In this document: positions 21,528 through 25,876 of the stretch, piece after piece
Layout of the letters: every line of letters starts with the position of its first letter
Numbering within the stretch: position 1 is the first letter of the stretch
Source: Escherichia phage vB_EcoP_PHB20
Sequence record: MN481366.1
Reading direction: 5' to 3' (one strand)
Length of the DNA stretch: 38,552 bases
Notes under the pieces: model-generated
Databases searched by the model: none
Seen by the model: the letters and a program-made list of their open reading frames with translations, nothing else
Told to the model about the DNA's origin: nothing
Made by a program: the position numbers and the translations under genes

Positions 21528-21540
21528 TAGGCTCTGAAAT

Positions 21541-21563
21541 TAATACGACTCACTATAGGGAGA
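21541..21563 (+). promoter_or_regulatory. T7 RNAP promoter phi10 (major capsid promoter)
   Basis: taatacgactcactatagggagaccacaacggtttccctctagaaat...aagaaggaga; +1 G at 21558. Confidence 0.9.
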
Positions 21564-21621
21564 CCACAACGGTTTCCCTCTAGAAATCATTCTTGTTTAA
21601 CTTTAAGAAGGAGACATATAT

Positions 21622-22653
21622 ATGGCTAACATGACTGGTGGACAGCAACTGGGTACTAACCAAGGTAAAGGCGCAAGCGGTTCTGATAAACTGGCGTTGT
21701 TCTTGAAGGTATTTGGTGGTGAAGTCCTGACCGCATTCGCTCGCACCTCTGTGACCACTTCCCGCCACATGGTCCGTACCATCTCCAGTGGTAAATCCGC
21801 TCAGTTCCCTGTTCTGGGTCGTACTCAGGCAGCGTATCTGGCTCCGGGTGAGAACCTCGATGATAAACGTAAAGACATCAAACACACCGAGAAGGTAATC
21901 ACCATTGACGGTCTCCTGACGGCTGACGTTCTGATTTACGATATTGAGGACGCGATGAACCACTACGACGTTCGCTCCGAGTACACCTCTCAGTTAGGTG
22001 AATCTCTGGCGATGGCTGCTGATGGTGCGGTTCTGGCTGAGATTGCAGGCTTGTGTAACTTGTCGAGCACCTCTGATGAGAACATTGCAGGTCTAGGCTC
22101 TGCCACTGTGATTGAGACAACTCAGGCCAAGTCTGTAATCACCGACCAAGTTGCTCTGGGTAAGGAGATTATTGCAGCTCTGACCAAGGCTCGCGCTGCT
22201 CTGACCAAGAACTATGTTCCGGCTGCTGACCGTGTGTTCTACTGCAACCCTGATAGCTACTCTGCGATTCTGGCAGCACTGATGCCTAACGCGGCAAACT
22301 ACGCTGCTCTGATTGACCCTGAGAAGGGTTCTATCCGCAACGTCATGGGCTTTGAGGTTGTAGAGGTCCCACACCTCACCGCTGGCGGCGCTGGCACTAC
22401 TCGTGAGGATGCTACGGGCCAGAAGCACGCCTTCCCAGCTACTGCGAGTGGTGACGACAAGGTTGCCAAGGACAACGTTATCGGCCTGTTCATGCACCGC
22501 TCTGCGGTAGGTACTGTTAAACTGCGTGACTTGGCTCTGGAGCGTGCTCGCCGTGCTAACTTCCAAGCTGACCAGATTATCGCTAAGTACGCGATGGGTC
22601 ACGGTGGTCTGCGCCCAGAAGCTGCTGGTGCGGTGGTTTTCGCGGCGGAGTAA
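21622..22653 (+). CDS. 10A: Major capsid protein gp10A
   Basis: 343 aa MANMTGGQQLGTNQGKG...; near-identical to T7 gp10A as recalled. Confidence 0.98.
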   Translation: MANMTGGQQLGTNQGKGASGSDKLALFLKVFGGEVLTAFARTSVTTSRHMVRTISSGKSAQFPVLGRTQAAYLAPGENLDDKRKDIKHTEKVITIDGLLTADVLIYDIEDAMNHYDVRSEYTSQLGESLAMAADGAVLAEIAGLCNLSSTSDENIAGLGSATVIETTQAKSVITDQVALGKEIIAALTKARAALTKNYVPAADRVFYCNPDSYSAILAALMPNAANYAALIDPEKGSIRNVMGFEVVEVPHLTAGGAGTTREDATGQKHAFPATASGDDKVAKDNVIGLFMHRSAVGTVKLRDLALERARRANFQADQIIAKYAMGHGGLRPEAAGAVVFAAE

Positions 22654-22814
22654 TGCTGGAAGTGGCCTCAACGGTCGCTGCTAGTCCCGAAGAGGTGAGT
22701 GTTACTTCACTCCAAGAGACCTTAACGCCAGCACAGAAGGCCGCACGCACACGCGCTGCTAACAAAGCCCGAAAGGAAGCTGAGTTGGCTGCTGCTGCCG
22801 CCGCTGAGCAATAA
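21622..22814 (+). CDS. 10B: Minor capsid protein gp10B via -1 ribosomal frameshift near the 3' end of 10A
   Basis: Slippery G GTT TTC at 22635-22641; the -1 frame stays open and encodes ...AARTRAANKARKEAELAAAAAEQ to TAA 22812-22814, like the T7 10B extension. Confidence 0.6.
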
Positions 22815-22862
22815 CTAGCATAACCCCTTGGGGCCTCTAAACGGGTCTTGAGGGGTTTTTTG
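22815..22862 (+). terminator. T7 RNAP terminator Tphi
   Basis: ctagcataaccccttggggcctctaaacgggtcttgaggggttttttg; the canonical Tphi hairpin plus U-run. Confidence 0.9.
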
Positions 22863-22879
22863 CTTAAAGGAGGAACTAT

Positions 22880-23470
22880 ATGAGCTCTTACGATATGAAC
22901 GTTGAGACTGCCGCTGAGTTATCCGCTGTGAACGACATTCTGGCATCTATCGGTGAACCTCCGGTATCAACGCTGGAAGGTGACTCTAACGCAGACGTAG
23001 CGAACGCTCGGCGTATTCTCAATAAGATTAACAGACAGATTCAGTCTCGTGGGTGGACGTTCAACATTGAGGAAGGCATAACGCTATTACCTGATGTTTA
23101 CTCCAACCTGATTGTATACAGTGATGATTATTTGTCCCTAATGGCTACTTCCGGTCAATCCGTCTACGTTAACCGAGGTGGCTATGTGTATGACCGAACG
23201 AGCCAGACAGACCGCTTTGACTCTGGCATTACCGTGAACATTATTCGCCTTCGTGACTACGATGAGATGCCTGAGTGCTTCCGCTACTGGATTGTCACTA
23301 AGGCTTCCCGTCGGTTCAACAACCGATTCTTTGGGGCACCAGAAGTAGAAGGTGTACTCCAAGAAGAGGAAGATGAAGCTCGACGTCTCTGTATGGAGTA
23401 CGAAGTGGACTATGGCGGGTATAACATGCTGGATGGCGATGCGTTCACTTCTGGTCTACTGACTCGCTAA
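22880..23470 (+). CDS. 11: Tail tubular protein A (gp11)
   Basis: 196 aa, same length and position as T7 gp11. Confidence 0.95.
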
Positions 23471-23491: not shown

Positions 23492-25876
23492 ATGGCGCTC
23501 ATTAGCCAATCAATCAAGAACTTGAAGGGTGGTATCAGCCAACAGCCTGACATCCTTCGTTATCCAGACCAAGGGTCACGCCAAGTTAACGGTTGGTCTT
23601 CGGAGACCGAGGGCCTCCAAAAGCGTCCACCAATGGTTTTCATTAAGACACTTGGAGACAGAGGTGCGTTAGGTCAAGCTCCGTACATCCACCTGATTAA
23701 CCGTGATGAGAACGAACAGTATTACGCTGTGTTCACTGGTAATGGAATCCGTGTGTTTGACCTTGCTGGTAATGAGAAGCAAGTTAGGTATCCTAACGGT
23801 TCCGACTACATCAAGACCTCTAATCCACGTAACGACCTGCGAATGGTTACTGTAGCAGACTACACGTTCGTCGTTAACCGTAACGTTGTTGTACAGAAGA
23901 ACACAACGTCTGTAAACTTACCGAATTACAACCCTAAGCGAGACGGATTGATTAACGTCCGTGGTGGTCAATACGGCAGGGAACTAATTGTACACATTAA
24001 CGGTAGAGATGTTGCGAAGTATAAAATCCCAGATGGTAGTCAACCGGCACACGTAAACAATACGGATGCCCAATGGTTAGCCGAAGAGTTAGCCAAGCAA
24101 ATGCGCACTAACTTGTCTGGTTGGGCTGTAAATGTGGGGCAAGGGTTCATACATGTGGCAGCACCTAGCGGTCAACAGATTGACTCCTTCACGACTAAAG
24201 ATGGCTACGCAGACCAGTTGATTAACCCTGTGACCCACTACGCTCAGTCGTTCTCTAAGTTGCCACCTAATGCTCCTAACGGCTACATGGTGAAAGTCGT
24301 AGGGGACGCATCTAGGTCTGCCGACCAGTATTATGTTCGGTATGACGCTGAGCGGAAAGTTTGGGTTGAGACTTTGGGTTGGAACACTGAGGACCAAGTA
24401 CGATGGGAAACAATGCCACACGCTCTTGTGCGAGCCGCTGACGGTAATTTCGACTTCAAGTGGCTTGAGTGGTCTCCTAAGTCTTGTGGCGACATTGACA
24501 CCAACCCTTGGCCTTCTTTTGTTGGTTCAAGTATTAACGATGTGTTCTTCTTCCGTAACCGCTTAGGATTACTTAGTGGTGAGAACATCATATTGAGCCG
24601 TACAACCAAATACTTCAACTTCTACCCTGCGTCCGTTGCGAACCTTAGCGATGACGACCCTATAGACGTAGCTGTGAGTACCAACCGAATAGCAGTCCTT
24701 AAGTACGCCGTTCCGTTCTCAGAAGAGTTACTCATCTGGTCCGATGAAGCACAATTCGTCCTGACCGCTTCTGGCACTCTCACGTCGAAGTCGGTTGAGT
24801 TGAACCTAACGACTCAGTTTGACGTACAGGACCGAGCGAGACCTTATGGTATTGGGCGTAATGTCTACTTTGCTAGTCCGAGGTCCAGCTACACGTCCAT
24901 CCACAGGTACTACGCTGTGCAGGACGTAAGTTCCGTTAAGAACGCGGAGGACATCACAGCACACGTTCCTAACTACATCCCAAACGGTGTGTTTAGTATT
25001 TGTGGTAGTGGTACTGAAAACTTCTGTTCGGTACTATCTCAAGGGGACCCTAGCAAAATCTTCATGTACAAATTCCTGTACCTGAACGAAGAGTTAAGAC
25101 AACAGTCGTGGTCTCACTGGGACTTTGGGGAAAACGTGCAGGTTCTAGCTTGTCAGAGTATCAGCTCAGGTATGTACGTGATTCTTCGTAATGAGTTCAA
25201 TACGTTCCTAACTAAAATCGCTTTCACTAAGAACGCCATTGATTTACAAGGCGAACCTTACCGTGCCTTTATGGATATGAAGATTCGCTATACGATTCCT
25301 AGTGGAACATACAACGATGACAACTTCACTACCTCGATTCACCTACCAACAATCTATGGTGCAAACTTCGGGAGGGGCAAAATCACTATACTGGAGCCTG
25401 ACGGCAAGATAACTGTATTTGGGCAGCCTACTGCTGGGTGGAAAAGCGACCCTTGGCTGAGACTCGACGGTAACTTAGAGGGACGAATGGTATACATTGG
25501 GTTCAACATTGACTTCGTATACGAGTTCTCTAAGTTCCTCATCAAGCAAACTGCTGATGATGGGTCTACCTCCACGGAAGACATTGGGCGCTTGCAGTTA
25601 CGCCGAGCGTGGGTGAACTATGAGAACTCTGGCGCGTTCAATATTTATGTTGAGAACCAATCGTCCAACTGGAAGTACGCAATGGCTGGTGCTCGCTTAG
25701 GCTCTAACACGCTGAGGGCTGGGCGATTGAACTTAGGGACCGGACAATTCCGATTCCCTGTGGTTGGTAACGCCAAGTTCAATACCGTGTCCATCTTGTC
25801 TGATGAGACTACCCCATTGAACATCATTGGGTGTGGCTGGGAAGGTAACTACTTACGGAGAAGTTCCGGTATTTAA
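23492..25876 (+). CDS. 12: Tail tubular protein B (gp12)
   Basis: 794 aa, same length and position as T7 gp12. Confidence 0.95.
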   Translation: MALISQSIKNLKGGISQQPDILRYPDQGSRQVNGWSSETEGLQKRPPMVFIKTLGDRGALGQAPYIHLINRDENEQYYAVFTGNGIRVFDLAGNEKQVRYPNGSDYIKTSNPRNDLRMVTVADYTFVVNRNVVVQKNTTSVNLPNYNPKRDGLINVRGGQYGRELIVHINGRDVAKYKIPDGSQPAHVNNTDAQWLAEELAKQMRTNLSGWAVNVGQGFIHVAAPSGQQIDSFTTKDGYADQLINPVTHYAQSFSKLPPNAPNGYMVKVVGDASRSADQYYVRYDAERKVWVETLGWNTEDQVRWETMPHALVRAADGNFDFKWLEWSPKSCGDIDTNPWPSFVGSSINDVFFFRNRLGLLSGENIILSRTTKYFNFYPASVANLSDDDPIDVAVSTNRIAVLKYAVPFSEELLIWSDEAQFVLTASGTLTSKSVELNLTTQFDVQDRARPYGIGRNVYFASPRSSYTSIHRYYAVQDVSSVKNAEDITAHVPNYIPNGVFSICGSGTENFCSVLSQGDPSKIFMYKFLYLNEELRQQSWSHWDFGENVQVLACQSISSGMYVILRNEFNTFLTKIAFTKNAIDLQGEPYRAFMDMKIRYTIPSGTYNDDNFTTSIHLPTIYGANFGRGKITILEPDGKITVFGQPTAGWKSDPWLRLDGNLEGRMVYIGFNIDFVYEFSKFLIKQTADDGSTSTEDIGRLQLRRAWVNYENSGAFNIYVENQSSNWKYAMAGARLGSNTLRAGRLNLGTGQFRFPVVGNAKFNTVSILSDETTPLNIIGCGWEGNYLRRSSGI

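Follow-up and report, generated by a model that had tools for sequence, protein, structure and literature searches.

We identified near the end of gene 10 of Escherichia phage vB_EcoP_PHB20 a locus that is very probably the ortholog of the T7 gene 10 programmed -1 ribosomal frameshift cassette, and that would direct synthesis of a 397-amino-acid form of the capsid protein, 10B. The locus has the anatomy of the T7 cassette, is homologous to it, and carries signatures of selection at both the coding and the RNA level. The recoding signal is that of T7 10A/10B, present here in a close relative of T7, and as such is already known. Coordinates refer to the window, the whole 38,552-nucleotide stretch of DNA that was analysed (sequence record MN481366.1), and the features described lie on its plus strand.

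A megablast search with positions 21540-22900 aligned this region at 100% identity over its full length with Enterobacteria phage vB_EcoP_IME390 (MH779619 / NC_048082, Teseptimavirus). Phage EG1 is 96.8% identical over the same region, and T7 and phiA1122 are ~91% identical at the nucleotide level. Upstream of gene 10, a phi10-type T7 RNA polymerase promoter (TAATACGACTCACTATAGGGAGA) can be read at 21541..21563. We take this sequence to fit the T7 class III promoter consensus, and promoter phi10 is annotated at the homologous position in the record of phage 13a. A T7-like gene 10 leader and ribosome-binding site precede gene 10A (ORF at 21622..22653), whose zero-frame product is the major capsid protein of 343 amino acids and 36.1 kDa, and which ends with a TAA at 22651-22653. 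Residues 61-339 match the Pfam family PF21703 (Gp10A-like, E=9e-113), identifying the host gene as T7 Gp10A-like, and the gene is labelled major head protein in NC_048082. The T-phi terminator was located by a terminator scan at 22822..22862 and consists of a hairpin (22822-22857; 15 pairs with a loop of 6) followed by a U-run, with a sequence the same as that of T7 throughout. The 5' side of T-phi contains a CCCC (22824-22827), a distal element implicated in T7 frameshifting (PMC5009743), that lies 182 nt from the slippery heptamer in PHB20 vs 179 nt in T7. Gene 11 begins at 22880.

The slippery heptamer occupies 22635..22641 and falls in the gene 10A phase as G_GTT_TTC. In the mRNA (G_GUU_UUC) the P-site tRNA-Val and the A-site tRNA-Phe would re-pair with GGU_UUU. 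Nine bases separate the heptamer from the 10A stop codon. The distance of 10 nt given in a preliminary description of this DNA is a fair one, as the stop codon starts 10 nt after the last heptamer base. The first codon following a -1 slip is CGC (22641-22643), and the -1 frame extension of 10B (22641..22814; RGGVMLEV...AAAAAAEQ) comprises 57 sense codons, 53 of them beyond the 10A stop, and a TAA at 22812-22814 that adjoins T-phi on its 5' side. The 54 additional open codons counted earlier correspond to these 53 sense codons plus the stop codon, and the early -1 stop codons that the same description had looked for after the slip site are absent, with none before 22812-22814. The full predicted 10B joins 21622-22641 to 22641-22814 and has a mass of 41.6 kDa.

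The heptamer is not a perfect X_XXY_YYZ sequence. The A-site shift from UUC to UUU is unproblematic, while the P-site shift from GUU to GGU keeps two of three positions. The G_GU of T7 is counted as an accepted intermediate for the X_XX part of the slip site (PMC5009743), and relatives with A_GUU_UUC or C_GUU_UUC retain the extension. We saw no clear Shine-Dalgarno-like element upstream of the slip site in PHB20.

GGTTTTC is found three times on the plus strand of the window, where chance predicts about 2.1 copies, and the heptamer is not significant on its own. A second in-phase copy is located at 23635 in gene 12, where the -1 frame shuts one codon later. The open -1 frame after the heptamer is moderately unusual. 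The -1 frame within 10A is interrupted by 36 stops over 337 codons and nowhere stays open beyond 23 codons, but 13% of composition-matched shuffles of the tail remain open. Given the chance frequency of the heptamer and this proportion of open shuffles, the signal is established by homology and comparison rather than by single-sequence statistics.

Our comparison set consisted of 80 IMG/VR loci, 63 metagenome loci, and 18 annotated phage records. Of the gene 10 3' ends compared, 121 are distinct, and among these an extension of at least 35 codons accompanies an in-phase U_UUC or A_AAG motif at the same or adjacent codons. In the seven exceptions the -1 ORF starts with its own ATG and resembles a separate downstream gene. 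G_GTT_TTC occurs in about 75 sequences, and A_ or C_GTT_TTC is found in 5, G_CCA_AAG in 2, and G_GTA_AAG in 2; the motif of the T3-like clade is C_CCA_AAG. The frameshift signal was called conserved at the outset, and N_GTT_TTC is retained by about 80 distinct relatives spread over several clades. In extension carriers, the substitutes for the heptamer at these codons are C_CCA_AAG, G_CCA_AAG or G_GTA_AAG, never non-slippery synonyms. Eighteen relatives that lack a U_UUC or A_AAG motif are also without the extension, and the sole relative that spells Val-Phe otherwise (L035, GTA TTT) likewise has no extension. The distance from the heptamer to the stop codon ranges from 6 to 18 nt among the relatives.

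Within the T7 group, all 31 sequences have the GTT codon and 30 have TTC. However, 4 of 18 Val codons and 5 of 9 Phe codons of the close T7 group do not vary in any case, so the invariance of GTT-TTC there is not significant alone and the argument rests on the wider clades. The pattern across the full set of relatives indicates an extension that depends on the slippery site and not on a start codon of its own.

Several features of the alignments support translation of the tail in the -1 frame. All indels in T7-group tails are multiples of three, and the -1 stop codon is always directly 5' of T-phi. Variable columns of the T7-group tail alignment are distributed 14, 9, and 28 over -1 codon positions 1, 2, and 3. 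Pooling the comparisons of PHB20 with 19 relatives gives a pN/pS of 0.44 for the -1 frame, against 1.14 and 1.24 for the other frames; the value for the 10A C-terminus is 0.17. The signal is unevenly distributed along the tail. Over 22656-22715 there is no periodicity, with 7, 5, and 8 of 20 codons variable at positions 1, 2, and 3, and third positions are suppressed relative to 10A (Fisher p=3e-4). Over 22716-22811 coding periodicity is clear, with 8, 3, and 22 of 32 variable (chi-square p=1.5e-4). The lower pairwise dS of the whole tail relative to 10A was traced to suppression in the first 60 nt only. From the contrast between these segments we conclude that the tail has two parts, the first of which may be constrained mainly as RNA, while the second is constrained as protein.

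The second part contains a predicted C-terminal alpha-helix (PAQKAARTRAANKARKEAELAAAAAAE, encoded by 22728..22808), which is the Ala-rich and basic portion of the tail. In a single-sequence AlphaFold2 model the tail is predicted to be a coil or linker followed by a single helix, formed by residues 26-52 of the 53-aa ORF; along most of the helix the block-mean pLDDT is 87-94. The tail had been characterized from the sequence as Ala-rich and basic. The first term applies to the whole tail (Ala 16/57), whereas the second applies only to the last 27 residues (6 K/R, 3 E, pI 10.3); the entire tail is neutral (7 K/R, 7 E, pI 6.4). The motif LTPxQKAAxTRAxNKA is kept across clades despite many synonymous changes. 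A Pfam search with the 57-residue tail returned no match. With 57 residues, no Pfam match and a different slip site, the PHB20 tail does not correspond to the T3-type Ig-like extension.

The first part of the tail overlaps a predicted structured RNA (22647..22713) that folding and third-position suppression mark as a candidate stimulator of frameshifting. In both an RNAalifold consensus and a constrained fold, a 5-nt spacer (22642..22646) separates the slip site from the first base pair of the predicted structure. The consensus, built on 17 T7-group sequences, consists of a closing helix (22647-22656/22699-22708), a central hairpin (22658-22667/22673-22682), and a small hairpin. However, its closing helix, the form predicted in most relatives, has only about 4% probability in PHB20's own ensemble. 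When the heptamer and four further bases are held unpaired as they would be by the ribosome, PHB20 adopts a predicted fold of -25.9 kcal/mol closed by a different helix, GGAGU (22647-22651) with ACUCC (22709-22713). This helix likewise begins 5 nt downstream of the heptamer, and both the central hairpin and a second hairpin (about 22692-22708) lie within it. The ACUCC is specific to PHB20 and arises from an LQ-for-TE substitution. The central hairpin (22658..22682; 9 pairs with the loop UCAAC) is the most robust predicted element, with pair probabilities in PHB20 of 0.78-0.99.

Across 27 distinct sequences, 98.3% of cells in the predicted structure are paired (97% in the central hairpin), and the variation preserves pairing save for nine cells. 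One G-C to U-A double change occurs, in phage JeanTinguely, and both of its substitutions are synonymous in the -1 frame. The observed values were matched by 9-11 of 500 shuffles. The conservation of pairing and the single compensatory change are suggestive of a local structure, but not decisive. The strongest support is independent of folding and comes from a scan of third-position variability in a sliding window of 12 codons across all 396 codons of gene 10. With 17 sequences the minimum (2/12) is at 22659-22697; with 31 sequences it is at 22680-22715 (3/12), and windows from 22659 to 22718 show 4/12. The mean for gene 10 is 74-78%. The suppression coincides exactly with the predicted 3' structure.

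The phiYeO3-12-like, Kvp1-like, and K11-like clades have unrelated stable folds at the equivalent place (z about -4), and that of the K11-like clade includes two compensatory pairs. A scan of 22400-22950 against Rfam at a permissive threshold returned only noise, namely eiav_FSE at 22417-22436 (E=2.4) and an lncRNA fragment. In the literature consulted, we found no local structure proposed as a T7-group stimulator and only the unexplained effect of the distal CCCC. We tentatively suggest that the first 60 nt of the T7-group extension (22647-22713 in PHB20) may be constrained mainly as RNA and act as a multi-hairpin local stimulator, with the tail as a linker dictated by this RNA followed by a helix selected as protein; the odds are somewhat against this reading in full.

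Pairings over longer distances were also considered. PHB20 lacks the G-run that T7 and most relatives have after the heptamer or the stop codon, and any long-range CCCC:GGGG pairing would therefore be weak here. In a global fold GCGGCGG (22642-22648) pairs with CCGCCGC (about 22795-22801), and together with the GUGG/CCAC of T7 this looked like covariation. However, the pairing is broken in 13a (GGGG vs CCACC) and phiA1122 (ACGAAG vs CCACC), and we rejected it as a by-product of the Ala-codon repeat. The bases following the heptamer can also form a duplex with the T-phi 5' flank and arm, UAGCAUAACCCCUUGG, which is their best partner in the gene 10 mRNA for 21 of the 31 T7-group sequences, with energies of -15 to -20 kcal/mol. 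The duplex is not the best in T7 (-12.1, with 23 other windows as good or better) or in PHB20 (-11.1, with 26 other windows), and it was therefore rejected both as the cause of the T7 CCCC effect and as a feature of PHB20.

The tail could instead be made separately, by ribosomes that stop at the UAA and restart at the overlapping AUG (22653..22655), yielding a free 53-aa peptide and no fusion. This AUG is the public start of a separate 53-aa 'head protein' CDS. The UAAUG overlap has a GGAG immediately upstream, the ATG is kept in 30 of 31 T7-group sequences, and the tail is filed as a stand-alone CDS in most public records and in PHROG 12582, which simply mirrors the split-ORF annotations. However, the GGAG is just 2 nt from the AUG, and the conservation of UAAUG is explained by the use of the same bases in the stop codon and helix 1; in L023 the ATG has been lost via two changes that preserve pairing. 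The ATG is confined to the T7 core; it is also absent from L016, L024, and all other clades, including the phiYeO3-12-like, K11-like, and T3-like ones. In these and in L023 the -1 ORFs are conserved and open for 37-92 codons. Additionally, the tail has been found fused to the capsid protein in T7 and in Kvp1 (Kvp1: PMC2579914). Re-initiation could coexist with frameshifting, but as the sole origin of the tail we consider it unlikely, and the separate 53-aa CDS in public records is probably a mis-annotation.

It is more doubtful still that the cassette is a relic, in which the heptamer is kept for the Val-Phe of 10A, the frame is open through RNA constraint, and no 10B is made. The dispensability of 10B in T7 and T3 (PMC3276506, PMC5592923) would fit such a relic, as would a constraint at the RNA rather than the protein level over the initial 60 nt of the tail, and the non-significant heptamer codon invariance in the close group. 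However, the last 96 nt show -1 coding periodicity (8, 3, 22 of 32 variable, p=1.5e-4), the pN/pS of 0.44 is found in the -1 frame alone, and LTPxQKAAxTRAxNKA persists across clades through many synonymous changes. The replacement and loss of the slip site also follow the extension. That the longer protein arises because the phage RNA polymerase slips on the T-run during transcription is scarcely credible, as the run at 22637-22640 has four T, far below the homopolymer lengths known for productive slippage (established knowledge; PMC5009743), relatives use CCA AAG or GTA AAG, which are tetramer-type ribosomal slip motifs, and the T7 literature ascribes the event to ribosomal frameshifting (PMC5009743, PMC1635266).

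Under programmed ribosomal frameshifting, the gene 10 mRNA would span the phi10 promoter to T-phi, and the majority of ribosomes would translate 10A to the UAA at 22651-22653. A minority would slip by -1 at 22636-22641, where the P-site tRNA-Val would move from GUU to GGU and the A-site tRNA-Phe from UUC to UUU. These ribosomes would then read CGC and add the 57-residue tail. The resulting 10B (397 aa, 41.6 kDa) would be assembled together with 10A as a minor component of the capsid. The predicted RNA structure at 22647-22713, which begins 5 nt downstream, probably stimulates slippage, and the 5' side of the T-phi hairpin possibly contributes, as in T7. Both the shift at the Phe codon and the presence of the fusion in virions are carried over from T7 and Kvp1. 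Tryptic peptides expected of 10B are YAMGHGGLRPEAAGAVVFR at the junction (shift at Phe, then Arg from CGC) and GGVMLEVASTVAASPEEVSVTSLQETLTPAQK in the tail.

In wild-type T7, about 10% of translations give 10B. A reporter carrying the bare GGTTTTC frameshifts at <1% (PMC1635266), and therefore the 3' context matters. By analogy, we would expect 10B to be produced in PHB20 at an efficiency of about 10%, and this rate to depend on a partly understood 3' context. A 2016 review describes the 3' stimulator of T7 gene 10 as still unexplained, with the CCCC of T-phi reported to be needed (PMC5009743).

The identification is of modest value as an annotation fix for PHB20 and most T7-group records, in which the 52-53 aa 'head protein' would be redescribed as a frameshift product. 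By analogy with T7, a T7Select-style C-terminal display site should exist in PHB20. For the study of recoding, the points of interest are that synonymous-site variation is suppressed over a predicted structure beside the slip site and that U_UUC and A_AAG motifs have naturally taken each other's place among relatives. Only the predicted local RNA structure, with its conservation, might be new.

The programmed -1 frameshift of T7 gene 10A/10B was reportedly described by Condron, Atkins and Gesteland in 1991 and by Dunn and Studier in 1983. The match to the T7 mechanism recognized in the preliminary description extends to an identical heptamer, the nine-base gap between G_GUU_UUC and the 10A stop, and T-phi with its CCCC, and 48 of the 57 tail residues are identical to those of the T7 10B tail. 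The UAAUG overlap and the 397-aa length of 10B are also shared. However, the three 10A residues after Phe are AAE in PHB20 and KVE in T7, and the first -1 codon is therefore CGC (Arg) in PHB20 and CAA (Gln) in T7. In addition, the PHB20 tail contains one extra Ala and carries LQ where T7 has TE, the GGGGG after the T7 stop is GGAAG in PHB20, and the predicted closing helix uses the PHB20-specific ACUCC.

Gp10B of Kluyvera phage Kvp1 arises by a -1 shift on TTTTC at a Phe codon, and the fusion has been proven by mass spectrometry (PMC2579914). Kvp1 is likewise a T7-like phage with a TTTTC slip run and a short tail containing a LTPAQKAARTRAANKA-type motif. However, the two phages differ in sequence in the first half of the tail and in the RNA fold that follows the slip site. 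T3 also makes its 10B, a dispensable minor capsid protein, by shifting to the -1 frame close to the 3' end of the major capsid gene (PMC3276506). The T3 shift occurs at C_CCA_AAG on Pro-Lys codons, two codons further on than the slip site of PHB20, and its extension is 85-92 residues long and is termed Ig-like (PMC5009743), compared with 57 residues in PHB20. Outside of phage, the E. coli dnaX signal resembles that of PHB20 in being a tandem slip on the bacterial ribosome with a stem-loop a few nucleotides downstream, which in PHB20 is predicted. However, dnaX has a perfect A_AAA_AAG heptamer and an upstream Shine-Dalgarno stimulator, and it frameshifts with about 50% efficiency (PMC1635266).

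A peptide motif that opens the predicted C-terminal helix of the 10B tail, LTP(A/Q)QKAA(R/I)TRA(A/R)NKA, was identified at 22722-22769. We compared the window with the gene 10 3' ends of relatives (loci L016, L021, L026-L034 and L047-L058), and the motif, whose codons show numerous synonymous changes, is kept across the T7-like, phiYeO3-12-like, Kvp1-like and short-tailed K11-like clades. It follows that the tail, though dispensable, is under selection for some protein function. Within 10A itself, third-codon-position variability dips a second time at 22225-22269 (4/12, versus a gene mean of 74-78%); apart from this stretch, no part of the gene comes near the level of suppression found 3' of the slip site.

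The annotation of the 10B tail was compared for 22653-22814 of the window and for loci L001, L002, L005 and L150-L161. In 13 of the 18 T7-group GenBank and RefSeq records fetched the tail appears as a separate CDS of 52-53 aa that starts at the ATG of TAATG, under product names such as 'head protein', 'capsid and scaffold protein' and 'hypothetical protein', and PHROG 12582 is made up of these split ORFs. A joined frameshift CDS is given only for T7 (NC_001604) and phiA1122, the phage 13a record has a note, and the JeanTinguely record is without a tail CDS.

A further in-phase G_GTT_TTC is found in gene 12 (23635-23641), where the -1 frame stops one codon later. This copy serves as an internal control, and given the short -1 frame behind it the heptamer by itself is not diagnostic. 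Among the relatives examined (L037-L044, L045, L096, L099, L140 and L035), the slip site is replaced at or adjoining the same codons. The substitutes are C_CCA_AAG, found in T3-like relatives with an extension of 85-92 aa, G_CCA_AAG and G_GTA_AAG. In L035 Val-Phe is written GTA TTT, and the extension is lost.

In 21 of 31 T7-group sequences UAGCAUAACCCCUUGG, at the 5' side of the terminator hairpin T-phi, where a CCCC has been reported as required in T7, finds its best partner in the entire gene 10 mRNA in the bases directly following the heptamer (AAGGGG...AUGCUG), with pairing energies of -15 to -20 kcal/mol. The corresponding segments in the window are 22642-22658 and 22816-22831. The G-run is absent from T7 and the window, and the corresponding pairing reaches only -12 and -11 kcal/mol, respectively. 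The window also has CTCCAA at 22710-22715, encoding Leu-Gln where relatives encode Thr-Glu. This window-specific sequence provides a perfect 5-bp complement to GGAGU (22647-22651), so that the predicted closing helix is displaced relative to the T7-group consensus. Phage vB_YpYeO9 (L153) carries a comparable CACTCG.

The K11/KP32-like clade (L046, L051-L086) has the same G_GTT_TTC, but it is followed by a different long hairpin approximately 20-62 nt beyond the heptamer. Compensatory changes affect two base pairs of this hairpin (AU/GC and CG/UA), both covering amino-acid-changing positions of an extension of 90-92 aa.
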